DNA of 64,000 nt from Planctomycetales bacterium (GCA_005239675.1 SBBO01000020.1:13627-77626), one strand, 5' to 3'. Shown: positions 25,122 to 63,821, numbered from the stretch's first letter. Program-made: numbers and translations. Notes: a model not told the origin generated them from the letters alone.

Positions 25122-26474
25122 ATGATTGATATCCAATACGATAAAAAGAGGGTGTTTGTTGAGACCTACGGCTGTCAAATGAATGTCTACGATACCGAAT
25201 TGGTACGTTCCATTCTGCTAAAGGCAGGCTATAGCTTTGTTGCCAAGGAACAGGAAGCGGATATTGCGCTTTTGAACACCTGTGCTATCCGAGAGCATGC
25301 GCATCAGAAAGTCTACAACCGCATCCATGAGATCAGGCGTTGTCATCAGGGCAAGTCGGTTGTGATCGGGGTCTTGGGTTGTATGGCGACCAATTTACGC
25401 ACCGACCTCTTGGAGAACCGTAGGCTCAACATTGATTTTATTGCTGGACCAGATTCGTATAAGAGGCTCCCTGAGTTGATTGCTCAATGCGTAAACGACG
25501 AGAAACAATGGACAGGAGATAAGCGGCGTAAGGCCTACGATGTGAGGCTTTCAGAATTTGAGACGTACGCGGACGTTTATCCTGAGCGTCCTGGGGGTGT
25601 CAACGCATGGTTAGCCGTCATGCGTGGGTGCAACAATTTTTGTACGTTTTGCGTGGTGCCCTACACGCGCGGCCGTGAGCGCAGCCGTGCACCGGAGAAT
25701 GTGGTTGCCGAGGTCAGGCGCCTGGGTCAAGAAGGATTTAAGCAGGTAACCCTTTTAGGCCAGAACGTCAATAGTTACTATTATCAAGGGCATGATTTCG
25801 CTGATCTGATCGAGGAGGTGAGCAGGGTAGAGACAATCGAACGCATCCGGTTTACATCCCCGCACCCCAAGGATTTCCCGGAAAAACTCTTGAATGTCAT
25901 TGCTCGTCATCCGAAGATCTGCAAGCACATCCATCTACCTGTGCAATCCGGCAGCAATCGCATCCTTGAACGAATGGGGCGCACCTACACGCGCGAGGAT
26001 TTTCTGGAGCTGGTTGCTAAAATCCAGCGTATCATCCCGGGTGTTGCGCTCTCAACAGATGTCATTGTCGGCTTCTGCGCAGAAACCGACGCAGACTTTG
26101 AGGACACATTGAGTCTGATGCGGGAGGTAGAATTCGATTCCGCATTTACCTTTAAATATTCCCAGCGTAAAGGCACGATAGCCTCCCGTCAATACAAAGA
26201 CGACGTGTTCGAGGCCATTAAGACCGAACGTATCGTCTCTTTAAACGCACTGCAGAAAGAGATTTCCTTAAAGAAAAACCGTGCGTATATTAGCCATTGT
26301 CACGAAATTCTCATTGAAAACAAAGGCAACAAGCATTCGCCGGATATCCTTTATGGCCGTACCGATGACAACAAGCTGGTGACGTTGGCTAGTGGTAATC
26401 ATGGTCTGGGCGAATTCGTGAAGGTACGTATAGTGGATGTCTCAGCTAACGTCTTGAAAGGGGTTGCAATTTAG
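25122..26474 (+). CDS. miaB: tRNA-2-methylthio-N6-dimethylallyladenosine synthase MiaB (radical SAM methylthiotransferase)
   Basis: An MTTase N-terminal Cys triad (YGCQMN...NTCAIRE...GCMA), a radical-SAM CNNFCTFC motif, and a TRAM C-terminus. Confidence 0.9.
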   Translation: MIDIQYDKKRVFVETYGCQMNVYDTELVRSILLKAGYSFVAKEQEADIALLNTCAIREHAHQKVYNRIHEIRRCHQGKSVVIGVLGCMATNLRTDLLENRRLNIDFIAGPDSYKRLPELIAQCVNDEKQWTGDKRRKAYDVRLSEFETYADVYPERPGGVNAWLAVMRGCNNFCTFCVVPYTRGRERSRAPENVVAEVRRLGQEGFKQVTLLGQNVNSYYYQGHDFADLIEEVSRVETIERIRFTSPHPKDFPEKLLNVIARHPKICKHIHLPVQSGSNRILERMGRTYTREDFLELVAKIQRIIPGVALSTDVIVGFCAETDADFEDTLSLMREVEFDSAFTFKYSQRKGTIASRQYKDDVFEAIKTERIVSLNALQKEISLKKNRAYISHCHEILIENKGNKHSPDILYGRTDDNKLVTLASGNHGLGEFVKVRIVDVSANVLKGVAI

Positions 26475-33678: not shown

Positions 33679-33761
33679 TGCCGAAGGTGGGAGTTGAACC
33701 CACACCGGGTTGCCCCGACTGGTTTTTGAGACCAGCGCGTATGCCATTTCGCCACTTCGGC
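33679..33761 (-). tRNA. tRNA-Leu (anticodon CAA), type II with a long variable arm; no genome-encoded CCA
   Basis: The rc reads GCCGAAGTGGCGAAATGGCATACGCGCTGGTCTCAAAAACCAGTCGGGGCAACCCGGTGTGGGTTCAACTCCCACCTTCGGCA. The 7-bp acceptor GCCGAAG/CTTCGGC, the anticodon loop CUCAAAA, and the T-arm GTGGG-TTCAACT-CCCAC are all present. Discriminator A, then TAA rather than CCA. Confidence 0.85.
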
Positions 33762-33775
33762 GTTTGCGTATCCTA

Positions 33776-34162
33776 CTACTGATATTTTTCTTTGATATCA
33801 TGTTTATTAAAATACGCGATAACCAGACCATGATAAATGACGGACAAGATATTTTTTGTTGGCCCCGGGATCACGGTCTCCAAGGCGCCATTTAAATGGA
33901 TAACGTCCATAAAGATCAGAAGCTTGCTTAAGATGATGACCGAGGAAAAATACATCAAAAGCTGGTATGCTAGTTTTTTGAAGTTCAGGATACCGATACC
34001 GATCAATATCGATACGATCCCGGCAACGATGACAAAGGTGAACACCTTGGGGGATTTGTCGTTGATGGCCAACATCTTGGCAGCCAGGTTCGATGTGACT
34101 GTTATTCCCCCAATTATGATCTCCATGATGCCGATGACAAGGACTGTTGGAGGATATTTCAT
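33776..34162 (-). CDS. hypothetical small integral membrane protein (3-4 TM) between two tRNA genes
   Basis: 128 aa with clear TM helices (VLVIGIMEIIIGGITV; FTFVIVAGIVSILIGIGILNF; VIILSKLLIFMDVI). It sits on the same strand as both flanking tRNAs. The overlapping + strand ORF is less protein-like. Confidence 0.45.
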   Translation of the reverse strand: MKYPPTVLVIGIMEIIIGGITVTSNLAAKMLAINDKSPKVFTFVIVAGIVSILIGIGILNFKKLAYQLLMYFSSVIILSKLLIFMDVIHLNGALETVIPGPTKNILSVIYHGLVIAYFNKHDIKEKYQ

Positions 34163-34220
34163 GGTGCGTTGGGTAAGGATAGATTCGATTCAGTGCCGCT
34201 GTTAGACAGCTAATCGTTTT

Positions 34221-34296
<76 letters not shown>

Positions 34297-39416: not shown

Positions 39417-41483
39417 ATGACGCGCAATACTGCAAGGGGAATATTTATCACGGGTACTGACACGGGCGTGGGTAAGACCGTCGCGATGCTGGTTCTTGGC
39501 ATCCACCTGCAAAAAGCAGGGTTTAATGTCGGGATCATGAAGCCAGTTCAGTGTGCCGGAAAAGACGCGTCTTTTTTGAAGAAGTCTTTGCATCTCGCTT
39601 GCGACTTGACCCACATCAATCCTTATCTTGCCCCTGAACCATTATCCCCCCACCTTGCCTTTAGTCGCATTAAGAACGAAATCAATGCCTCGAAGATCAT
39701 AACGGCCTATCAGCATTTACAACAACATCATGACATTATTTTAGTCGAGGGCGCCGGTGGTTTGCTGGTGCCTTTACGTAAAGATTATTTGGTTGCGGAT
39801 TTAGTGAGAGACATGGATCTAGATCTGATAATTGTCGCACGTCTAGGATTGGGGACGATCAATCATTCGTTGTTGACAATCCAAGCTGCCCGCGCCCACG
39901 GATTGCATGTGCGTGGCATTATCTTTAATGCAACACGGCCCATCATGCCGGGAATCTCTCAGGCAACCCCTTTGGGGTTGCCTGAGAGAACCAATCCCAT
40001 TATTATCCGTCAATTGGGCCATGTCGCAATCTTAGGGACTATTCCTTATTTGAAGAATTTTCGTCGGCAGGAGATCCTAACCCAATGTCACCTCAATCTA
40101 CGGCTAATTATTGATCGCGTCCCTGACGCATCCGCATCTCAGGTCCCGCGGCAGCTGGCAGCTTGGGATAAAAAATACCTTTGGCACCCCTTTACTCAGA
40201 TGAAGGACTGGTTGGCGGATGAACCACTCGTCATTAGCCGTGCCCGCGGGAGTTATTTAATCGACACTCAGGGTCGTCGTTATCTCGATGGCGTGTCCAG
40301 TCTTTGGGTGAATGTTCATGGCCATGGGCACCAAACGGTCAATCGCTTCATCGGCGAACAACTCAATCAACTAGAGCACTCAACGCTATTGGGACTGTCC
40401 AATACCCCGGCCATCCAATTGGCGCGTAAGTTAGTGACCATCGCACCCATTGGCCTGAACAAGGTTTTTTATTCGGATAATGGCTCCACCGCCGTTGAGG
40501 CAGCGATCAAGATCGCTTATCAGTATTGGCAAAATACCGGATGTTCCAATAAACGGCTCATCGCACATCTAGCCAATTCTTATCACGGCGACACGCTGGG
40601 AAGCGTGAGCGTGGGCGGTATCGATTTATTTCACCAGGTTTATCGAGATCTCGTCTTTCCCACCATGGCCGTTGATTTTCCAGACTGTTACCGTGCGCCT
40701 AGAGGCAAGAAATATCCGGACTATGCCTTTGAATGCTTGGAGCGGTTTGCAACGACCTTGAAGAAAAGACATAACCGCATCGCCGCTTTTGTTGTTGAGC
40801 CCATTGTCCAGGGGGCCGCAGGTATGTTGATGTGGCCGAAGGGTATTTTAAAAAGAATGCGCGAGCTCTGCCATCGGTATAAGATTATTTTTATCGCTGA
40901 TGAGGTAGCGACCGGTTTTGGGCGTACCGGCAAGATGTTTGCCTGTGAACACGAAGGCGTCTCACCGGATATCTTGTGCCTAGCCAAAGGACTCACCGCT
41001 GGGTATCTGCCGCTCGCTGCGACACTGACCACCCAAGAGATTTTCAATGGTTTTGTGTTCGATTATAAAGATCAGAAGACGTTTTTCCATGGTCACACCT
41101 ATACCGGTAATCCGTTAGCGTGTGCGGCAGCGTTGGCGAATCTGGAGGTCTTTGAGCGGGAGAAGACACTGCGCACGCTTGTCCCCAAAATAAAATTCTT
41201 GAGGGAGCGGCTTAATTTGTTTTATAATCTTCCTCATGTGGGCGACGTCCGTCAGTGTGGATTTATGGTTGGGATTGAACTGGTGCGCGATCGTCAGACC
41301 AAAGAGCCGTATGCGTGGCAAGAGCGCGTGGGCACACGCGTCTGCCAAGAGATACGAAAACACGGTGTCATCTTGCGGCCGTTAGGCAATGTGATTGTCC
41401 TTATGCCGCCATTGTCCATTGCCATGGATGAATTGACACATCTCTTGGATGCCACGTACCGAGCCATAGAAAAGAAGACATGA
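39417..41483 (+). CDS. bioDA: fused dethiobiotin synthetase (BioD) - adenosylmethionine-8-amino-7-oxononanoate aminotransferase (BioA)
   Basis: A single 688-aa ORF. The N-terminal ~230 aa is BioD (GIFITGTDTGVGKTV...EGAGG) and the C-terminal ~450 aa is a class-III aminotransferase (YLWHPFTQM...ADEVATGFGRTGKMFA). Confidence 0.82.
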   Translation: MTRNTARGIFITGTDTGVGKTVAMLVLGIHLQKAGFNVGIMKPVQCAGKDASFLKKSLHLACDLTHINPYLAPEPLSPHLAFSRIKNEINASKIITAYQHLQQHHDIILVEGAGGLLVPLRKDYLVADLVRDMDLDLIIVARLGLGTINHSLLTIQAARAHGLHVRGIIFNATRPIMPGISQATPLGLPERTNPIIIRQLGHVAILGTIPYLKNFRRQEILTQCHLNLRLIIDRVPDASASQVPRQLAAWDKKYLWHPFTQMKDWLADEPLVISRARGSYLIDTQGRRYLDGVSSLWVNVHGHGHQTVNRFIGEQLNQLEHSTLLGLSNTPAIQLARKLVTIAPIGLNKVFYSDNGSTAVEAAIKIAYQYWQNTGCSNKRLIAHLANSYHGDTLGSVSVGGIDLFHQVYRDLVFPTMAVDFPDCYRAPRGKKYPDYAFECLERFATTLKKRHNRIAAFVVEPIVQGAAGMLMWPKGILKRMRELCHRYKIIFIADEVATGFGRTGKMFACEHEGVSPDILCLAKGLTAGYLPLAATLTTQEIFNGFVFDYKDQKTFFHGHTYTGNPLACAAALANLEVFEREKTLRTLVPKIKFLRERLNLFYNLPHVGDVRQCGFMVGIELVRDRQTKEPYAWQERVGTRVCQEIRKHGVILRPLGNVIVLMPPLSIAMDELTHLLDATYRAIEKKT

Positions 41484-50157: not shown

Positions 50158-53124
50158 ATGATTTGGCGCGTTGAGATAAGAAATAAGGCCGGTATTTTTG
50201 ATGCTCAGGGTCACGGTATCCAGAAAGACACTGTCGATCTAGGAATTCAATCGGTCCATCAGGTCGATGTCGTTGAGATCTACAATCTTGAAGGTGATCG
50301 TTTTTTCTCTGAGGAAGACCTCGTGAGGATTTGTCGTGAATTGTTCGTGGATAGTATTGCTCAAGATTATGCCTATTTCAAGCTTGACGGTCTATCGCGT
50401 AGCGACAATCCCGTTTGTCATCCAATCGAAATTGCCTACAATGCCGGCGTGATGGATCCGGCAGAAGAATCCATCCTCAAGGGGATTCGCGATTTAGGGA
50501 TTCAGAGTGTCCAGGCAGTTCGCCGCGCCCGCCTTTATCTTTTTTATGGCCCCATCCTCCCCAAAGACTTGGATATCATTACCAATAAGATTCTCTCCAA
50601 TAAGCTGATTCAGCATGTGGTTCCTGATCCTTGGAGATATAAGACGCTTGTGGGGACACCTGATACGCAAATTCAGCAAACATTTAAGGCGCTGGACATT
50701 GACTTGGCGCATGCCAGCGACCAGCAGCTCAAGGCGATCAGCCGCCATGGGCAACTATTTTTGAATCTAAATGAGATGAAGGCCATTCAAAAATATTTTT
50801 GTAGGCTCGGGCGCAATCCGACCGACTGTGAGCTGGAGACAATTGCCCAGACATGGAGTGAGCATTGTTATCATAAAACTTTTCGCGGCGACATCCGTTA
50901 TCGCTATCAAGAAAACGGCAAGACAAAGACGAAACGCATACAGAATCTCCTTAAGTCCACGATCATGAAGGCCACACACGAAGTGAACAAACCCTGGTGC
51001 GTCTCAGTCTTTCATGATAATGCCGGTGTCATTCGTTTTTCGAAAAATATGCATGTGTGTTTCAAGGTGGAGACCCATAACCACCCCTCGGCCCTGGAGC
51101 CATTTGGTGGCGCCAACACGGGAGTAGGCGGTGTGATTCGCGACATCTTGGGCACCGGATTAGGTGCCAAACCGATTTGCAACACGGATATCTTTTGTTT
51201 TGCGCCACACCCCATGTCTTCGGCGAGTCTGCCGCCTGGTACGTTGCATCCCCAGCGCATTATGAAAGGGGTTGTGAGCGGGGTGCGTGATTATGGTAAC
51301 AAGATGGGCATCCCAACGGTCAATGGGGCGATTGTGTTTGATGAGCGGTTCGTGGGCAATCCTTTAGTTTTTTGTGGCAGCGTGGGACTTCTTCCAAAGG
51401 ATAAAGTCAGGAAAAAGGTACGCAAAGGTGATTGGATTGTGCTGGTGGGCGGCAGGACAGGTCGCGACGGCATTCATGGGGCGACTTTTTCTTCGGGGGA
51501 GTTGACGCAGGAATCCGAGATCGTGTCCTGTGGCGCGGTCCAGATTGGTGATCCTATTCAGGAAAAGAAAATGCTTGATTGTCTGATTGCGGCGCGGGAC
51601 AAAAATTTGTATACGGCCATCACCGATTGCGGGGCTGGCGGGCTTTCCAGCGCCGTAGGAGAGATGGCCGCTAGAACTTCTCCAGAAGGCAAGGACTTGG
51701 GGGTTCATGTTGATTTAGACAATGTGCCGCTCAAGTACCAGGGGTTGAGGTACGATGAGATCTGGATCTCAGAATCGCAGGAGCGGATGGTCTTGGCAGC
51801 GCCGCCGAACAAGATTAAGGCGCTGTTGGAAATTTTTACCGGGGAGAACGTCGAAGCGACCGCGATTGGTACATTTACCGCGAGCGGACGTTTGGAATTA
51901 TTTTTCCAAGGGCATCAGGTTTGCAATCTGGATATGGGCTTTCTTCATCGCGGTATTCCCAGGATTACTAAAGAGGCATTCTGGCAGCCGCCGAAAACAA
52001 CAACACCGTCATTATTCTCTAAGACAACGGATCTTAATGCCAAACTTAAAGAGATCTTGGGCCATTACAACGTTTGTTCTAAGGAACGGGTCATCCGCCA
52101 ATACGATCACGAGGTCCAGGGGGCGAGCGTGATTAAACCCTTGGTCGGGATGCATGCAGACGGGCCATCGGATGCCAGTGTCCTGGCACCCGAGTTAGGC
52201 TCGGTCAAGGGCATGGCGATCGCCAACGGCATCAATGTCCGTTACGGCATGATCGATCCTTTCTGGATGGCGGCGTCTTGTATTGATGAAGCGATCCGCC
52301 AGATTATTGCCGTGGGGGGTGATCGGCGTTTTATTGCCCTTTTGGATAATTTTTGCTGGGGCAATCCCGACAAGCCAGATCGACTGGGGAGTCTTGTGCG
52401 TGCGGCCCAGGGTTGTTATAAGACGGCCGTTGGCTACGGAGTTCCATTTATTTCCGGCAAGGACAGTTTGTACAACGAATATACCCATGACGGTGAGTCC
52501 ATTGCCATCCCGGGGACATTGCTTATCTCAGCTATTGGTATTATAGCGGATGTGACCAAGGCGGTTACTATGGATTTAAAAGAGCCAGGCAATTTGATTT
52601 ATATGATTGGTAATACATATAATGAACTTGGTGGGTCCATTTATTTGGATACTTATGGCACGCTGGGTCACCATGTCCCTCATGTTGATGTGCGTCAGGG
52701 CAGTCAGATTTTTGATGCCGTTACTAAGGCTGTTCAAAAGGGGCTAGTGCGCTCTTTGCATGACTGTTCAGAAGGAGGTCTCGGCGTTGCCATAGCCGAG
52801 ATGGCGTTTAGCGGGGGTTGGGGGGTGACCCTACGGTTGGATCAAGTTCCCTACAAGGGTAAAGACAGGTGTAATGATATTATATTTTTCGCGGAATCAA
52901 ATTCACGTTTTTTAGTAGAGGTTGAGCCAAGAAATCAAAAGAGATTTGAACGGGTCCTGTGCGCCAGCCACGCCATTGGCAGGGCCGGCGCAGTGCCGTA
53001 CGCAGTTATTGGAACAGTCGAGCAGCAGCCGTCTTTGGTTGTGTATGGTGACCGGGGTGAGCGCTGTGGGGATTCACCTATCGAAGATTTGAAACAGGCC
53101 TGGCAGCGGCCGCTTGCGTGGTAA
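50158..53124 (+). CDS. purL: fused PurS-PurL phosphoribosylformylglycinamidine synthase (no glutaminase domain)
   Basis: 988 aa. The N-terminal ~85 aa are PurS-like, followed by small-PurL AIR-synthase-related domains (HNHPSALEPFGGANTGVGGVIRD ...). There is no GATase domain; purQ is a separate gene. Confidence 0.82.
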   Translation: MIWRVEIRNKAGIFDAQGHGIQKDTVDLGIQSVHQVDVVEIYNLEGDRFFSEEDLVRICRELFVDSIAQDYAYFKLDGLSRSDNPVCHPIEIAYNAGVMDPAEESILKGIRDLGIQSVQAVRRARLYLFYGPILPKDLDIITNKILSNKLIQHVVPDPWRYKTLVGTPDTQIQQTFKALDIDLAHASDQQLKAISRHGQLFLNLNEMKAIQKYFCRLGRNPTDCELETIAQTWSEHCYHKTFRGDIRYRYQENGKTKTKRIQNLLKSTIMKATHEVNKPWCVSVFHDNAGVIRFSKNMHVCFKVETHNHPSALEPFGGANTGVGGVIRDILGTGLGAKPICNTDIFCFAPHPMSSASLPPGTLHPQRIMKGVVSGVRDYGNKMGIPTVNGAIVFDERFVGNPLVFCGSVGLLPKDKVRKKVRKGDWIVLVGGRTGRDGIHGATFSSGELTQESEIVSCGAVQIGDPIQEKKMLDCLIAARDKNLYTAITDCGAGGLSSAVGEMAARTSPEGKDLGVHVDLDNVPLKYQGLRYDEIWISESQERMVLAAPPNKIKALLEIFTGENVEATAIGTFTASGRLELFFQGHQVCNLDMGFLHRGIPRITKEAFWQPPKTTTPSLFSKTTDLNAKLKEILGHYNVCSKERVIRQYDHEVQGASVIKPLVGMHADGPSDASVLAPELGSVKGMAIANGINVRYGMIDPFWMAASCIDEAIRQIIAVGGDRRFIALLDNFCWGNPDKPDRLGSLVRAAQGCYKTAVGYGVPFISGKDSLYNEYTHDGESIAIPGTLLISAIGIIADVTKAVTMDLKEPGNLIYMIGNTYNELGGSIYLDTYGTLGHHVPHVDVRQGSQIFDAVTKAVQKGLVRSLHDCSEGGLGVAIAEMAFSGGWGVTLRLDQVPYKGKDRCNDIIFFAESNSRFLVEVEPRNQKRFERVLCASHAIGRAGAVPYAVIGTVEQQPSLVVYGDRGERCGDSPIEDLKQAWQRPLAW

Positions 53125-57144: not shown

Positions 57145-57678
57145 ATGAAAAGAATTCAAGTTGCGATCATGATGGGAAGTCAGTCCGATTTTCTCGTAAT
57201 GGAAGAAGCGGGCTGTATTTTAGAAGAATTTAAGGTGGATTATGAGATGAGGGTCCTTTCTGCCCATCGCACCCCTAAAGAAACCGCCGCGTACGCTGAA
57301 GGCTTGAAGGCGCGGGGCGTTCAGGCGGTCATCTGTGGGGCTGGTGCCTCCGCAGCGCTGGCTGGATTTGTGGCTGCCCATATTGATATCCCTGTTATCG
57401 GCGTGCCTATTGACTCTACACCGCTTAACGGCATAGACGCGCTTCTTTCCACCGTACAGATGCCACCAGGGGTTCCCGTCGCTGCTATGGCGGTGGGAAA
57501 ATTCGGCGCTAAGAATGCCGCGCTCTTTGCCTTGCGCATCATAGCCCTGACCGATGACAAGATTGCGGGAAAGCTAACTCACATGAAGGAGGAGCAAAGG
57601 CAGAAAATCCTAGATATCACGTTGCCTAGAAGCAAGAAGATTCCCTTAAAAGTCCAATCAGCGAACGCGAAGAAATAA
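57145..57678 (+). CDS. purE: 5-(carboxyamino)imidazole ribonucleotide mutase PurE
   Basis: 177 aa PurE fold (IMMGSQSD...VIGVP). No purK is in the window. Confidence 0.85.
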   Translation: MKRIQVAIMMGSQSDFLVMEEAGCILEEFKVDYEMRVLSAHRTPKETAAYAEGLKARGVQAVICGAGASAALAGFVAAHIDIPVIGVPIDSTPLNGIDALLSTVQMPPGVPVAAMAVGKFGAKNAALFALRIIALTDDKIAGKLTHMKEEQRQKILDITLPRSKKIPLKVQSANAKK

Positions 57679-57682
57679 CGCA

Positions 57683-58744
57683 TTGAAGACACAGATATTA
57701 GAAGCCCATCCCCAGTTTCCTGAAGCCAAAACGATAGCGTATTGCGCGCAGATCATTCGTAGGGGAGGGCTCGTTGTTTTTCCTACGGAGACGGTTTATG
57801 GTCTGGGGGCGAATCTCGCCAATGAGACGGCGATGCAGCGTCTGCGGGAGGTCAAAAGGCGTGATCCTGGCAAACCATTTTCTATCCTTATCGCGCAGAT
57901 CGGGCTTATCTCTAATTACACATCTACCATGGATACGAATTTGTACAAGGTAATTGATGCGTATTGGCCGGGACCTTTGACAGTGGTGGTACCGGCCAAG
58001 GAGCCAGGACAGACGATCGGTGTACGCATGCCGGATCATCCGATTGCGTTACGGCTGGTGCAAGAGTCTCAGTGCACCATTGCCGCACCATCGGCAAATT
58101 TCGAAGGGAATCCCGCGCCAACGACGTGTCAGGAGGCATTGCAGGATTTAAATGGCCTGGTTGATGTGGCCATTGACGGCGGGCCAGCTAAGATCGGCAT
58201 CGGATCTTCCGTCGTTGACATGGCGCATGGCATCCCCAAGGTTTTGCGCCAGGGTGTCATCACCCAAGAGGACCTCGACCGCGTTGTCCAGAAAAAGACC
58301 ATCCTTTTTGTGTGCACGGGTAATAGCTGCCGGTCGGTCATGGCGCAATACCTTTTGCGCAGCATGCTTGCCGGAAGAAAGGACGTAGAGGTGCTTTCCG
58401 CGGGGACTGGGGTGTTTTTTCAGACAACGGCCAGTGCAGAGACCATTGCCGTGCTCAAGGAAGATGGGATCGATGCCTCTCAACATATATCCACGGCCAT
58501 TAATTCGATTCTTTTGAAAAAATCAGATTTGATTTTCGTGATGACGCGTAATCACCATCAGCAAGTCCTGGACCGCGTGCCGCAGGTCGAACAAAAGGTA
58601 TACCTTTTAAGGGAATTTATTGATACGCCCGCGGGCCTTGTGGATAGCGATGTGCCAGATCCCATTGGCCAGCCGCACTACGCGTATAAGGAGTGCCTGG
58701 CGATCATCAAAGAGGCCATACACAAGATTGTTGGGTTGATTTAA
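57683..58744 (+). CDS. tsaC: fused L-threonylcarbamoyladenylate synthase (TsaC/YrdC domain) - low-molecular-weight protein phosphatase (LMW-PTP/YwlE-like)
   Basis: The N-terminal ~190 aa is a YrdC fold (GGLVVFPTETVYGLGA...). The C-terminal ~150 aa has the LMW-PTP P-loop VCTGNSCRS (CX5R) and a DP motif. Confidence 0.8.
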   Translation: MKTQILEAHPQFPEAKTIAYCAQIIRRGGLVVFPTETVYGLGANLANETAMQRLREVKRRDPGKPFSILIAQIGLISNYTSTMDTNLYKVIDAYWPGPLTVVVPAKEPGQTIGVRMPDHPIALRLVQESQCTIAAPSANFEGNPAPTTCQEALQDLNGLVDVAIDGGPAKIGIGSSVVDMAHGIPKVLRQGVITQEDLDRVVQKKTILFVCTGNSCRSVMAQYLLRSMLAGRKDVEVLSAGTGVFFQTTASAETIAVLKEDGIDASQHISTAINSILLKKSDLIFVMTRNHHQQVLDRVPQVEQKVYLLREFIDTPAGLVDSDVPDPIGQPHYAYKECLAIIKEAIHKIVGLI

Positions 58745-58745
58745 G

Positions 58746-59207
58746 ATGACATCGAAAGTTTTTATCGGCGCGGACCATCGGGGATTTTCGCTTAAAAGCA
58801 AAATCATTGAGCTGTTGGGCCGTTGGGGGCATTGTGTTGAAGATATGGGCACCTTTGATGAGGACCAGCCTTGCGATTATCCACAAGTGGCGCACAAGGT
58901 TGCCCGGGCAGTCGCAAAGACCAAAGGCAGTCGTGGGATTCTGATGTGTATGTCTGGCATCGGCCAGACGATTGCGGCTAACAAGGTCCCTGGGGCGTAT
59001 GCCGCTCTTTGTTATAATGCTACGGCTGCCGCCCTATCCCGTCAGCATAATAATGCAAATATTTTGGTGCTTGGCGCGAAATTTGTTAAGTCGAAGGAAA
59101 TCCCTAAGATTTTAAATGCTTGGTTTGCTAGCGATTTTGAGGGCGGCCGCCACCAGCGGCGGTTTGAACAAATCAAGAAAATAGAAAAAGGACAGTTAAG
59201 CAATTGA
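58746..59207 (+). CDS. rpiB: ribose-5-phosphate isomerase B (RpiB/LacAB family)
   Basis: 153 aa ([10 protein letters not shown]...[16 protein letters not shown]). Confidence 0.85.
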
Positions 59208-59245
59208 ATAGAGGGACAATGAATCCAACCGTAGAAAGAAGGAAA

Positions 59246-60499
59246 ATGATGCAACATCTCAAAGAAACCGATCCAGCTATTTATAAAGCGATCCAGGATG
59301 AGCTCGAGCGTGAGCAGAATAATCTCGAACTAATCGCCTCAGAGAACATCGTTTCAGAGGCGGTCTTGGAGGCGCAAGGATGTTTAATGACCAATAAATA
59401 TGCCGAAGGGTACCCGGCTGCGCGTTGGTATGGTGGATGTGAACATGTTGATGCGGTTGAACAATTAGCTATTGACCGTGCCAAGCAGCTTTTCGGTGCA
59501 GAGTATGTCAACGTCCAGCCGCATTCGGGTTCCCAGGCCAACATGGCCGTGTATCTGGCTGCCCTAGAATATGGGGATACCGTGTTGGCCATGGATTTGG
59601 CCTGTGGTGGGCATCTGACGCATGGTCTTAAGATCAATTTTTCTGGCCGGTCGTACAATTTTGTCACGTATAAAGTTAATCGCCAAACGGAGATGTTGGA
59701 TTACGGTGAGATCCAGGCCCTCGCTAAAGAACATAAACCAAAACTAATTGTCTGCGGCGCCTCTGCCTATTCGCGGATAATTGATTTCAAGAAGTTTAGA
59801 GAAATCTGTGATACCGTGGGGGCGCTTCTTTTCGTTGACATGGCGCATATTGCGGGATTGGTCGCGGCGGGAATGCATCCGAATCCGGTGCTTTATGCGG
59901 AATTTGTGACAACAACGACCCACAAGACTCTGCGGGGTCCCCGTGGGGGGATGATTCTTTGCCGTCAGGAGTTTGCCAAGAAAATCAATTCGGTTGTTTT
60001 CCCTGGTATCCAAGGAGGGCCCTTGATGCACGTGATCGCGGCCAAGGCCGTGTCGTTCAGGGAGGCCTTGACGAAAGAATTCCAAGAGTATCAACAGCAG
60101 ATTGTCAAGAATGCTCAGGCCTTTGCCAAAGAAATGGCCCGGCTTGGCTATCGTATTGTCACTGGAGGCACAGATAATCATTTGTTTATGGTGGATCTGC
60201 GTTCCAAGAACACAACCGGCAAGGAGACCGCGGCGGTCTTGGATAGGGTGGGCATTACGGTTAATAAAAATTTAATTCCCTTCGACCCGCAGCCGCCTGT
60301 CGTTACCAGCGGCATCCGGATAGGTACCCCGGCAGTCACGACCCGCGGGATGAAGGAAAGACAAATGCAGGAAATTGCTGGTCTCATCGACCAGACCATT
60401 CTGGGCAAAGACAATGAGGGCAAATTGGCGAAGATCAAGACCTGCGTGCATGAATTGACCGAGCAGTTTCCGATCTATAGAGATTTATTTTTAAGATGA
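59246..60499 (+). CDS. glyA: serine hydroxymethyltransferase
   Basis: SHMT fold with the PLP-Lys motif [13 protein letters not shown]. The ATG at 59246 has a GAAGGAAA RBS and fits the GlyA N-terminus. The ORF-track start was an upstream in-frame codon at 59204. Confidence 0.9.
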
Positions 60500-61413: not shown

Positions 61414-62886
61414 ATGTCTCTCTTGAAAGACTACCCTTTCATACAAGTTATTCAGGACATTGCCAGACACCGCAAGGTGGCCGTGTATCTGGTGGGTGGA
61501 TTTCTACGTGATTATCTGCTCGGCGCAGATCACGCCGGATCCGGGTCCTTAAACCCTATGTGTTTTAAGGATTTTGATTTTGCTGTTGAAAAAGAGGCCC
61601 TCAGCTTCGCTCGTCTTTTTGCCCGGAAGATCCGTGGGGCTTATGTCCTTTTAGACAAGGAGCGTGGCTGTGCGCGCGTCGTGCACCAGTGCCTTGGCCA
61701 AACTAGTATCTGCGATTTTGCCGATTTCAGGGCACACCCTTTCGCCAAGGACTTGGCACACCGTGATTTTACAATTAATACTTTGTCTATTGATGTGCAT
61801 AAGCTTGAGCGTTCCACCGCTATCACCGATGCCTTGGCCGATTATAAAGATGGGATCAAGGACCTGCGAGCCAAGCGCATCCGCCGGGTCTCAGTTAAGG
61901 CATTCCGGGAGGATCCACTACGCCTATTACGGGCCTTTGGCCTTTGCGCAGTATTGGGTTTCAAGGTTGAACGTGTCACCTTGACCCAGATCCATCGGGA
62001 AAAGGATTTATTGCGTGATGCCTCCTATGAACGCATTCGTGATGAACTGTTTAAGATTCTCACAACCAATCGAGCAGCTGCAACCCTTAAGGCCATGGAC
62101 AAGGTTGGATTATTGGAAAAGATCATCCCGCAGGTGAAGGTAATGTACGCCTGCGCCCAGGGACCATATCACCATCTGAACGTCTGGCGCCATACCTTGG
62201 AGGCGGTTGTCCAGTTTGAAGATGTTATCACCCAGACTAACGGCCAGGCCCAAGTTGTTGATTATCTTAATGAATCCTTGGGAGGCAATCGTCCGCGTCG
62301 GGCGCTTTTAAAATTGGCGTTACTGTTGCATGATATCGGCAAGCCCCAGACGCGCCGTCAAGAAAAGGGGCGCATGACGTTTTACGGACACGAACGCGTC
62401 GGCAAGAATATCACCACCCACATCGCCCGCATGCTGAAACTCTCGGTGCGCGAGCGCCACGCCCTCGAGGACATGGTCCTCTGGCATCTGCGTCCTGGCT
62501 ATTTGTCTAATTTCCGCAAGCCAAGCGAGAAGGCCATCTACCGATATTTTCGTGACACTAAACAGGAAGCTGTAGGAATTTCATTACTGTCGCTCGCCGA
62601 TCAACGGGCAACACGGGGACCCTTGACAACAGCGCACGATCAAAGGCATCATGAACGGATCTGTCTTAATTTGGTGCAGCGGTATTTTGACAAGAAAAAG
62701 GAAAGACCATTCGTACGTCTTATTAACGGCCATGAGGTGATGCGACGTTGGCGCTTGTCGCCATCGCCTTTAATCGGCAAGATTCTTCGGGAAGTGGCGG
62801 AAGGGCAGGCATTGGGCAAGATCCACACCAAAGAAGAGGCGCTCGTCTTAGCGGGCAGGATAGTGCACAAAGGCAAGTTGCCATGA
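61414..62886 (+). CDS. cca: CCA-adding tRNA nucleotidyltransferase / poly(A) polymerase family enzyme with a C-terminal HD domain
   Basis: Class-II NTase head (VGGFLRDYLLG...DFD...RDFTINT) followed by an HD domain (LLLHDIGKP). The start is 2 nt after the BFN stop. Confidence 0.8.
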   Translation: MSLLKDYPFIQVIQDIARHRKVAVYLVGGFLRDYLLGADHAGSGSLNPMCFKDFDFAVEKEALSFARLFARKIRGAYVLLDKERGCARVVHQCLGQTSICDFADFRAHPFAKDLAHRDFTINTLSIDVHKLERSTAITDALADYKDGIKDLRAKRIRRVSVKAFREDPLRLLRAFGLCAVLGFKVERVTLTQIHREKDLLRDASYERIRDELFKILTTNRAAATLKAMDKVGLLEKIIPQVKVMYACAQGPYHHLNVWRHTLEAVVQFEDVITQTNGQAQVVDYLNESLGGNRPRRALLKLALLLHDIGKPQTRRQEKGRMTFYGHERVGKNITTHIARMLKLSVRERHALEDMVLWHLRPGYLSNFRKPSEKAIYRYFRDTKQEAVGISLLSLADQRATRGPLTTAHDQRHHERICLNLVQRYFDKKKERPFVRLINGHEVMRRWRLSPSPLIGKILREVAEGQALGKIHTKEEALVLAGRIVHKGKLP

Positions 62887-63821
62887 GGATCAAAGATATC
62901 GAGGTCAAGATACTACGCAATGATATCACACAGTTGGACGTGGATGCCATTGTTGTAGCAGCCAACAGTCGCTTGACCATGGAAGGAGGGTTAGCGGCAT
63001 TCATTAAGAAGGAAGGCGGTCCGGCCATTGAAGAGGAGGCTATGTCCAAAGGGCCTGTCGCGCAAGGAACCGTGGTGAAGACCAAGGCCGGGGGATTGAA
63101 GACCAAATACATTCTACATGCCGTTATCCAAGAAGGGGATGAACCGGCACAAGAGGAGGTCCTGCGTAAGGCGGTTGCCTGTGCCCTTAGGTGCGCTAAA
63201 GAGCATCACATGCGGTCGCTTATGTTTCCAGCTCTAAACTGCGACAACGGTGAGTTTTCGCCAATCGGTGCGGCCAAGATCATGGTCCAGGAAGTGATGA
63301 AATGTGCCCGAGATCCCCAGATGACAGTGCGCGAGGTCGTCTTTTGCTTGTATGACGAAGAAACTTTCCGTACGTTTGATCGTACCATTCGTGGCTATAT
63401 TAGCCATATGATCAATGATTTAGGTTTTGGCCCTTATGCGACGGTTGATATTATCATTGAATATGAAGGGGGCGTCATTCTTGTTGAGCGTTCAAACCCT
63501 CCGTACGGTTGGGCCCTACCAGGTGGATTTGTTGAATATGGAGAAAGCCTGGAGCAAGCCGCGGTGCGCGGGGTCAAGGAGGAGACGAATTTGGATCTGG
63601 CGGATTTGCGGCAGTTCCACACCTATTCGGCACCAGGCCGCGATCCGCGTTTTCATACGATTTCAACGATCTTCATCGCCGATGGTATCGGCAAGCCAAT
63701 CCCTGGCGACGATGCGGCCAACGTGAAGATCGTGCGATACGAAGACCTCCTGCAAGGCAATTACGCCTTTGACCACAAAGAGATCCTTGAGGAGTATCTG
63801 GTGGAAAAGGATTTAGATTAA
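62883..63821 (+). CDS. fused Macro domain (ADP-ribose binding / processing) - Nudix hydrolase
   Basis: The ATG at 62883 overlaps the cca stop (ATGA). The N-terminal ~180 aa is a macro domain (DVDAIVVAANSRL...GGLAA...YILHAV). The C-terminal ~130 aa has the Nudix box GGFVEYGESLEQAAVRGVKEETNL. The ORF-track upstream extension (62748) has a low-complexity N-terminus inside cca. Confidence 0.78.
   Translation: MRIKDIEVKILRNDITQLDVDAIVVAANSRLTMEGGLAAFIKKEGGPAIEEEAMSKGPVAQGTVVKTKAGGLKTKYILHAVIQEGDEPAQEEVLRKAVACALRCAKEHHMRSLMFPALNCDNGEFSPIGAAKIMVQEVMKCARDPQMTVREVVFCLYDEETFRTFDRTIRGYISHMINDLGFGPYATVDIIIEYEGGVILVERSNPPYGWALPGGFVEYGESLEQAAVRGVKEETNLDLADLRQFHTYSAPGRDPRFHTISTIFIADGIGKPIPGDDAANVKIVRYEDLLQGNYAFDHKEILEEYLVEKDLD

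Follow-up and report, generated by a model that had tools for sequence, protein, structure and literature searches.

A widespread fusion of a TsaC-like threonylcarbamoyl-AMP synthase domain with a YwlE-type phosphatase domain and its possible tie to t6A synthesis

Why should the enzyme that opens the synthesis of a universal tRNA modification share one polypeptide with a protein phosphatase? N6-threonylcarbamoyladenosine (t6A) belongs to the small set of universal tRNA modifications, and the first enzyme of the pathway, which makes threonylcarbamoyl-AMP (TC-AMP), is currently described in two forms: TsaC, with one domain, and Sua5, in which a TsaC-like domain is followed by a linker and a SUA5 domain. 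A stretch of 64,000 nt attributed to a Planctomycetales bacterium (GCA_005239675.1, SBBO01000020.1:13627-77626; hereafter the window) carries, at 57683..58744 on the + strand, an open reading frame (ORF) of 353 aa plus stop, with a TTG start, which a sequence-only reading had taken for a fusion of two usually separate genes. Both the position of the ORF and the fusion are borne out by the reading of the frame and by two full Pfam domains. The first half (aa 1-203; 57683..58291, +) is a TsaC/Sua5-family catalytic domain of the YrdC fold, assigned through PF01300, TIGR00057, structure alignment and Foldseek, and ends where the linker of a Sua5 would start; the second (aa 204-353; 58292..58741, +) is a YwlE-like low-molecular-weight (LMW) Cys phosphatase domain, assigned through PF01451, sequence matches and Foldseek. 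The assignment of the ORF as a whole, a TsaC-like TC-AMP synthase domain followed by a YwlE-type LMW phosphatase domain, draws on Pfam, NCBIfam, homologues and an AlphaFold2 (AF2) model. PF01300 (Sua5_yciO_yrdC) matches aa 23-191 over positions 1-178 of a profile of 178 (E 4e-52; 177 bits, cut-off 25), PF01451 (LMWPc) matches aa 207-348 over positions 1-142 of 144 (E 7e-29; 101 bits, cut-off 23), and the L-threonylcarbamoyladenylate synthase model TIGR00057 scores 185 bits (cut-off 123).

The gap between the two domains is of about three residues. Read directly from the DNA, the junction is in frame (...QGVITQEDLDRVVQKKTILFVCTGNSCRS) and holds no leftover stop, ribosome-binding site or start codon. 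An assembly or frameshift artefact joining two genes, a worry attached to the junction from the outset, is scarcely credible: the junction is clean, the spacer between the domains is conserved among the fusions (20-33 residues, see below), the same architecture is found in 120 of the 120 closest homologues and in at least 27 GTDB genomes, and independent assemblies by the hundred, drawn from four repositories, show it too, as do genomes of cultured strains. The fused TsaC-phosphatase gene is real.

Is the first half, then, a Sua5 or a TsaC? Its best sequence matches among solved structures are 2eqa from S. tokodaii (143 bits), 6f87 from P. abyssi (138 bits) and the T. maritima TsaC2 9d3h (126 bits), with only 59 bits to E. 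coli TsaC; the type-1 TsaC equivalog NF007919 scores 69 bits, below its cut-off of 175. At the level of fold, Foldseek places the domain near YciO (1k7j, target-normalized TM-score (TMt) 0.83) and YrdC (1hru, TMt 0.79). The KxR/SxN tetrad that binds ATP serves as a family filter in PMC10321239, and the motif is defined for the P. abyssi enzyme (Pa-Sua5) in PMC6004061. In the fusion, the KxR half is K58-R59-R60 (57854..57862, +; from the alignment) and the SxN half is S137-A138-N139, behind P136 (58088..58099, +; from the DNA and the alignment), so that K58, R60, S137 and N139 align with K56, R58, S143 and N145 of Pa-Sua5. Among 73 aligned short, two-domain fusions (30-61 % identical to the query), the tetrad is kept as K in 70, R in 66, S in 72 and N in 71, and K58, R60, S137, A138 and N139 are each at least 90 % conserved. 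The residue before SxN is, according to PMC10321239, a signature: Pro in Sua5-type enzymes, Thr or Ser in the TsaC type. It is Pro in the query (P136), and P in 44, T in 20 and S in 6 of the 73 short fusions. By its best matches and its signature Pro, the domain looks derived from Sua5. Several Sua5-specific residues are replaced in the query (Pro59 by Asp61, Asn62 by Lys64, His67 by Leu69, Glu180 by Gly), as are the motifs KPSPT (NPAPT) and GVE (GIG). Several TsaC variants likewise have Lys at the Asn62 position; His67 and Pro59 are lost additionally in the query's own clade, whereas most short forms retain both.

The homology to Sua5 (2eqa/6f87) ends at about residue 208 of Pa-Sua5, where the lid-linker starts, and the phosphatase begins three residues later. 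The lid-linker carries the PGM and HY motifs, given as essential in PMC6004061; neither motif was found in the fusion protein, and PF03481, the Pfam model of the SUA5 C-terminal domain, has no match in the query, while it does match the longer fusions described below. On this alignment the phosphatase stands in the place of the lost linker and SUA5 domain, and the protein is assigned to the TsaC/Sua5 family as neither a Sua5, having no linker or SUA5, nor an E. coli-type TsaC. The proposal that ywlC and ywlE have here become one ORF thus holds for the two types of domain and fails for the remainder: with the linker and SUA5 domain of a Sua5 gone, a loss of about 140 residues, the fusion protein is not simply ywlC plus ywlE. 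We take B. subtilis YwlC to be a two-domain Sua5-type enzyme, which agrees with the ORFs of 333 and 350 aa at the Bacilli loci L066 and L051. The length of the fusion, about 353 aa, is coincidentally like that of a Sua5 (about 340 aa) and, along with the name given to the product, conceals how the two differ.

Possibly, the phosphatase domain makes up in cis for what has been lost, either by stabilizing an otherwise unstable TsaC domain or by bringing its P-loop to act on ATP, PPi or an acyl-phosphate-like intermediate, much as the acylphosphatase domain of HypF feeds its YrdC-like domain. SUA5 is missing exactly where the phosphatase begins, truncations of Pa-Sua5 without linker and SUA5 are unstable and inactive (PMC6004061), HypF sets a precedent in which a phosphatase-type (acylphosphatase) domain occurs with a YrdC-like domain, and the strong divergence of the short-form TsaC domains is what would be expected after a change of partner domain. 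The AF2 model, of high confidence (predicted local distance difference test, pLDDT, 96.9; predicted TM-score, pTM, 0.92), likewise predicts a phosphatase rigidly packed on the first domain; the spacer from the REG strand, the last of the TsaC domain, to the FVC strand, the first of the phosphatase, is conserved at 20-33 residues, mostly 22-23, and the high pTM together with this short, conserved spacer indicates a fixed inter-domain arrangement. The candidate that the phosphatase is itself a diverged SUA5 was rejected, however, since hhalign gives a probability of 0.1 % when the profile of the 73 LMW phosphatase sequences is set against one of 28 linker-plus-SUA5 sequences. Nor does the modelled phosphatase overlie SUA5: when the whole model is aligned with Sua5 by Foldseek, the root-mean-square deviation (rmsd) is 14-18 Å and the query-normalized TM-score (TMq) about 0.54, each half fitting its own family well. 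The longer fusions keep SUA5 and yet carry the phosphatase, a Pontiella TsaC does without either domain, and the invariant general-acid Asp and nucleophile Cys point to phosphoryl-transfer chemistry rather than to mere binding. We regard a substitution in cis as improbable.

What, then, would the second half do? Its P-loop, read from the DNA, is C211-T-G-N-S215-C216-R217-S218 (58313..58336, +), a CX5R-S motif with the nucleophile Cys211, Arg217 and a hydroxyl at position 5, and its general-acid motif is D326-P327 (58658..58663, +), within DPIG. All 120 close homologues read CTGNSCRS, and C211, N214, C216, R217, S218, D326 and P327 are invariant in the 73 short fusions, so that the CX5R and DP residues expected of a phosphatase are indeed kept. 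Foldseek aligns the modelled domain with YwlE, Wzb and MPtpA at TMt 0.84-0.93 and an rmsd of 1.6-2.3 Å. With a full domain, the fold, CX5R(S/T) and DP, it is placed by sequence and model in the LMW phosphatase superfamily. The invariance of the catalytic residues speaks against a phosphatase domain that has decayed to a structural role alone, and both enzyme halves look catalytically alive.

Within the superfamily, the best solved matches of the C-terminal domain are 4egs (75 bits), an LMW phosphatase whose entry carries an RpiB name and which is, to our knowledge, not biochemically characterized, followed by the YwlE entries 4pic (67 bits), 1zgg and 4kk3 (62 bits each). The tyrosine phosphatases of the Wzb type and ArsC are less similar to it than YwlE is, and the domain is probably orthologous to YwlE. 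Specificity for arginine as against tyrosine goes with a hydroxyl (Thr11 in YwlE/DARP) instead of Ile at position 5 of the P-loop, according to PMC7772506, which cites Fuhrmann 2013 for it. That position is S in 42, T in 26 and I in 3 of the short fusions, that is S or T in 68 of 73, and T in 30 of 31 long forms. The residue that follows DP is aliphatic in the query (Ile) and I, V, F or L among the fusions, the six most frequent residues at that place in the 73 sequences not including Tyr. The domain does not match a canonical phospho-tyrosine (pTyr) phosphatase of the Wzb/Ptp kind: it has Ser215 at position 5 where Ile or Leu would be expected, DPIG in place of DPYY, and scores far below the cut-offs of the Wzb-type NCBIfam models (NF007520, 53 bits against 243; NF008486, 56 against 247). 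Specificity for phospho-arginine (pArg) is likely, as judged from these residues; pArg appears the likeliest substrate because of the hydroxyl at position 5, the lack of aromatic residues of the pTyr pocket and the standing of YwlE as the closest characterized relative.

The sequence CTGNSCRS is presumably also the P-loop of the thioredoxin-coupled arsenate reductase ArsC (that of pI258 and of B. subtilis). One public source does name a homologue 'Arsenate reductase thioredoxin-coupled, LMWP family', and weak matches to NCBIfam ArsC models occur, but these reach 49-56 bits against cut-offs of 174-215 (NF010053, 55 against 215; TIGR02691, 49 against 174). The only conserved cysteines are C211 and C216, and no equivalents of Cys82 and Cys89 are present: the corresponding segment, VMTRNHHQQV, resembles AMTHQHKQII of YwlE. 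Nor are ars genes found in the window. An arsenate reductase is therefore very improbable: the scores below the curated cut-offs and the lack of the Cys82/Cys89 pair both exclude it. Two short fusions, from Stahlbacteria (L044) and from a metagenome-assembled genome (MAG) of Clostridia (L047), have the atypical P-loops CAANVCRS and CTANLCRS; in both, position 5 is hydrophobic and Gly has given way to Ala, and the specificity of these phosphatases may have shifted. An odd protein of 1679 aa (P0241) has N-terminal pyruvate-phosphate-dikinase and phosphoenolpyruvate-utilizer mobile domains together with LMWPc domains, five in tandem, and the P-loops of several of these are degenerate (CSFNTSRS, CTHNTSRS, CAANHSRS).

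The architecture extends well beyond the window. In a collection of 5.8 billion proteins, the best 120 matches (from NCBI, JGI, ENA and Logan) all carry both domains, at 63-100 % identity and 338-369 aa, 113 of them being of 353-354 aa; those close homologues that are named belong to Candidatus Omnitrophica/Omnitrophota and are annotated just as "threonylcarbamoyl-AMP synthase". A HMMER search of all 1.84 billion representatives of clusters at 50 % identity gave, among the best 150 clusters, about 100 two-domain short fusions (340-395 aa; 33-62 % identity, one end-to-end match) and 31 longer fusions of 470-650 aa. The latter combine PF01300, PF03481 and PF01451 and are thus three-domain fusions of a Sua5 with the phosphatase. 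At least 27 in-frame fusions were verified in independent GTDB species-representative genomes of at least six phyla, a distribution that is a lower bound. The short form occurs at least in Omnitrophota, many Planctomycetota (the cultured Stieleria magnilauensis, with a complete genome, among them), Verrucomicrobiota, Aerophobetes, Stahlbacteria and one Clostridia MAG, and Poribacteria also have it; the long form occurs in at least two Bacillota among the GTDB matches listed. The phylogenetic spread, raised as a question when the fusion was first noticed, is therefore over several phyla and in two forms, common in public databases and in no way particular to the window. The architecture is abundant in public data but concealed under a single-function name. 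The t6A surveys PMC10321239, PMC4615747, PMC9654439, PMC6004061 and PMC10484737 make no mention of a TsaC-phosphatase fusion, and no paper describing one was found in searchable full text, subscription-only literature being outside that scope. The closest GTDB representatives among the matches listed, L001 and L002 (58-59 % identity), show the full purD-to-nrdR synteny of Omnitrophota loci; their 'Planctomycetales' label may be a misassignment of these MAGs, as the next-closest named proteins are all from Omnitrophota.

Did the fusion arise once? In a neighbour-joining tree, one split sets the TsaC-like domains of all 85 short fusions apart from those of the long fusions and of ordinary Sua5 proteins. 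The bootstrap for the exact clade is 3 of 50, on long branches, and a single origin of the short form is suggestive only. The mean Kimura distance among short-form TsaC domains is 1.33, versus 0.72-0.75 for Sua5 and long-fusion domains, so that long-branch attraction is possible; the divergence is also consistent with accelerated evolution after the loss of SUA5. The one non-fused protein on the short-form side is the 210-aa TsaC of a Pontiella sp. (Kiritimatiellota; L009, 3117-4240), whose nearest relative is a fused protein of Verrucomicrobiota (L010). In Pontiella, the short TsaC gene is followed 46 nt later by a separate YwlE-like gene, and the intergenic stretch holds three in-frame stops and a GAGGAA ribosome-binding site for the phosphatase gene. 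The kinship of this TsaC with a fused protein suggests that the fusion was later split again. A single ancient fusion with later fission fits the tree and is likewise suggestive only. Distances among the N-terminal halves correlate with those among the C-terminal halves (mirror-tree r = 0.37, Mantel p <= 0.001), as co-inheritance would predict. SUA5 may have been lost before the fusion, or a long fusion may have lost its middle. An origin of the fusion inside a conserved sua5-ywlE-rpiB cluster, and its retention by Omnitrophota, Planctomycetota, Verrucomicrobiota and neighbouring phyla, are strongly supported.

The genes around the fusion bear on what its partners are. The fusion starts 4 nt after the stop of purE (57145..57678, +; ORF call, Pfam and NCBIfam) and is followed after 1 nt by rpiB (58746..59207, +; TIGR01120, 147 bits, cut-off 139), its conserved partner gene, which overlaps by 4 nt with the serine hydroxymethyltransferase gene glyA (59204..60499, +; NF000586, 644 bits). 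These form a tightly packed, co-directional unit, purD-purE-fusion-rpiB-glyA-nrdR followed by a bifunctional-nuclease-domain (BFN) gene and then by a gene with a poly(A)-polymerase/CCA-adding-type head and an HD domain, the genes after glyA being separated by 1-4 nt or overlapping. No convincing internal promoter or terminator was recognized in the operon, the promoter, terminator and Rfam scans being uninformative. A neighbourhood conserved as ywlC-ywlE-rpiB-glyA had been proposed, and rpiB and glyA do follow here in this order, with the synteny recurring elsewhere. An rpiB homologue comes next after the phosphatase in most fused loci, 0-3 nt past the fusion stop in at least 12 of the 27 listed; glyA synteny is seen in L001-L005, L009, L010, L012 and L025, and Omnitrophota-like loci retain the full order purD-purE-fusion-rpiB-glyA-nrdR. 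One element of the proposal has to be corrected: ywlC and ywlE of B. subtilis are near each other, not adjacent, because in the published gene order ywlD sits between them, and gaps of 655-877 nt between the sua5 and phosphatase genes at the Bacilli loci L051 and L066 agree with the position of ywlD. Clostridia without the fusion mostly have the two genes side by side, 0-81 nt apart. At seven loci of Lachnospiraceae and other Clostridia (L024, L049, L061, L064, L075, L076 and L079), rpiB comes straight after sua5 and no gene for an LMW phosphatase intervenes, so that the sua5-rpiB link persists where the phosphatase is absent from the locus. Three more fusions lie in the window, all on the + strand: purS::purL (50158-53124; PurS, FGAR-AT linker and AIRS domains, 988 aa), bioD::bioA (39417-41483; an AAA_26 dethiobiotin-synthetase-like domain and BioA, 688 aa) and Macro::NUDIX (62748-63821; 357 aa). 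The genome represented by the window seems prone to fusing functionally linked neighbours.

Does the fusion bespeak a functional link? In B. subtilis, McsB phosphorylates TsaD on Arg282 and ClpCP then degrades TsaD; disruption of ywlE destabilizes TsaD, while the R282K substitution or the loss of mcsB or clpC stabilizes it, and YwlE reverses the phosphorylation of TsaD-R282, thereby preventing degradation by ClpCP (PMC7546277). A link between TsaC and the phosphatase, as suggested earlier on Rosetta-stone grounds, is supported, and we infer it for this organism the more readily because the fusion persists across phyla at 30-45 % identity, because the same partners are fused separately as Sua5, SUA5 and LMW phosphatase in Bacillota, because both active sites stay conserved and because YwlE, unfused, stabilizes TsaD in B. 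subtilis.

In a rival explanation, neighbouring genes of an operon were welded together neutrally through the loss of a stop and a spacer, the domains working independently, TsaC for t6A and the phosphatase generally on pArg or pTyr, and the fusion securing nothing but co-expression. The sua5 and phosphatase genes are simply adjacent in many Clostridia, as described, and separated by ywlD in Bacilli; Pontiella has two separate genes, even though the closest relative of its TsaC is fused; the region is a packed run of unrelated housekeeping genes; and the other three fusions in the window suggest a general tendency to fuse. Neutrality sits less well with retention of the fusion across several phyla at 30-45 % identity and in 100 or more of the 50 %-identity clusters, with the joining of the same partners in two distinct architectures, with the fixed interface, not beads on a string, that AF2 predicts, and with the experimental relation of YwlE to TsaD. 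A neutral weld is a serious possibility, if a somewhat unlikely one.

We favour instead a reading to which we give a probability of roughly 0.55: on sequence grounds, the polypeptide would hold two working enzymes, and the phosphatase, with a preference for clients in the t6A machinery, would protect the t6A pathway. The N-terminal domain would convert threonine, bicarbonate or CO2 and ATP into TC-AMP in the manner of a linker-less TsaC, and the unstable TC-AMP would be handed to TsaD in the TsaBDE complex. The C-terminal domain would strip phosphate from proteins, most probably from pArg, its preferred clients being TsaD or its partners. The tether would bring the phosphatase to the site where TsaC docks (TsaD/TsaBDE) at a stoichiometry of 1:1, and the pathway may thereby be shielded from phospho-dependent inactivation or from degradation of the ClpC type, much as free YwlE shields TsaD in B. 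subtilis. The chemistry needed is not confined to Firmicutes, since Chlamydia, a bacterium of the Planctomycetes-Verrucomicrobia-Chlamydiae (PVC) group, has a pArg-dependent ClpC and McsAB orthologues (PMC10128030). The kinase TsaE/UbK was considered as a counterpart of the phosphatase and set aside as a weak lead, a TsaE-family kinase of S. pyogenes being reported not to be dephosphorylated by an LMW phosphatase.

Several observations weigh against such a protective role. The query has Ser215, and not Thr, at position 5 of the P-loop, and since CTGNSCRS is shared with ArsC, the substrate class is not readable from sequence alone. Neither McsB nor ClpC is encoded in the 64-kb window, no search of the carrier genomes having been made. 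The unfused TsaC and phosphatase of Pontiella show that the covalent link is dispensable, and some Lachnospiraceae carry sua5-rpiB with no phosphatase at the locus at all. Moreover, the linkage of rpiB to the phosphatase is at least as tight as that of tsaC, so that the true partner of the phosphatase could lie elsewhere in the operon.

A stronger version of the protective role can also be envisaged, in which the fusion is, in Omnitrophota, Planctomycetota, Verrucomicrobiota and their relatives, a dedicated guardian module: an eraser of pArg, or of other N- or O-phosphorylation, would be hard-wired to TsaC, with TsaD/TsaBDE as the conserved primary target of phospho-tag inactivation or ClpC degradation, and the phosphatase would have taken over the stabilizing role of SUA5, making the protein a third mechanistic class of TC-AMP synthase. 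Although we consider it unlikely, it would imply that signalling through phosphorylated arginine occurs widely in these Gram-negative phyla and is coupled to the fidelity of translation.

How does the fusion compare with the systems already known? With Sua5/TsaC2 (2eqa, 6f87, 9d3h; also B. subtilis YwlC) it shares the YrdC-fold domain (126-143 bits), the tetrad, the signature Pro, a length of about 350 aa and an operon context beside ywlE-rpiB; it differs in having no lid-linker or SUA5, its second domain being an LMW phosphatase that has no relation to SUA5 and does not sit where SUA5 does. Like the E. coli TsaC/YrdC (1hru), it has neither linker nor SUA5 and carries Lys at the equivalent of Asn62, and its mechanism is presumably linker-independent; unlike TsaC/YrdC, to which it shows only 59-69 bits, it has the signature Pro rather than Thr or Ser and an extra C-terminal enzyme domain. 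YwlE of B. subtilis and G. stearothermophilus (4kk3, 4pic) and S. aureus PtpB share with it CTGN[S/T]CRS, the two cysteines and the position-5 hydroxyl, a DP(F/I)G acid loop free of the aromatic residues of the pTyr pocket, and a gene place just upstream of rpiB, whereas here the phosphatase is joined covalently to TsaC and position 5 is Ser instead of Thr in the query's clade. HypF and TobZ are precedents for YrdC-fold adenylating domains within multidomain enzymes, in HypF with an N-terminal acylphosphatase, but their partners are acylphosphatase and Kae1-like domains, their substrate is carbamoyl phosphate and they have no LMW phosphatase; the Kae1-like partner, TsaD, remains outside the TsaC-phosphatase fusion. 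The Sua5-SUA5-phosphatase fusions of Bacillota (for example L027, L029 Ca. Fermentithermobacillus, P0156, P0158 and P0173) have the same partners, order and rpiB neighbourhood and an intact CTGNTCRS; these differ in keeping linker and SUA5 (470-650 aa), in having Thr at position 5 and in TsaC domains that group with ordinary Sua5.

The fusion thus adds to TsaC and Sua5 a third widespread form of the first t6A enzyme, in which SUA5 is replaced by a YwlE-type phosphatase, catalytically intact as far as its residues tell. Surveys guided by length or product name could overlook it, as it looks like a Sua5 of about 350 aa and bears the label "threonylcarbamoyl-AMP synthase". Two architectures and cross-phylum synteny provide strong comparative-genomic support for a tie between YwlE-type phosphatases and t6A, so far based on the genetics of B. 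subtilis (the control of TsaD by YwlE, McsB and ClpCP), and regulation of the pArg type may operate well beyond Gram-positives. The fusion also bears on the role of the SUA5 domain and on how SUA5 can be lost.

Elsewhere in the window, a gene at 25122-26474 (+) was considered as the t6A-specific methylthiotransferase MtaB and rejected: it is MiaB (TIGR01574, 472 bits, cut-off 355), the MtaB model scoring 319 bits, below its cut-off of 357, and this radical-SAM methylthiotransferase of the MiaB type is unrelated to t6A. Two tRNA genes lie on the - strand, at 33679-33761 and at 34224-34296. The latter overlaps the 5' end of a 152-aa ORF (33807-34265, -) that has no Pfam match and is probably spurious.

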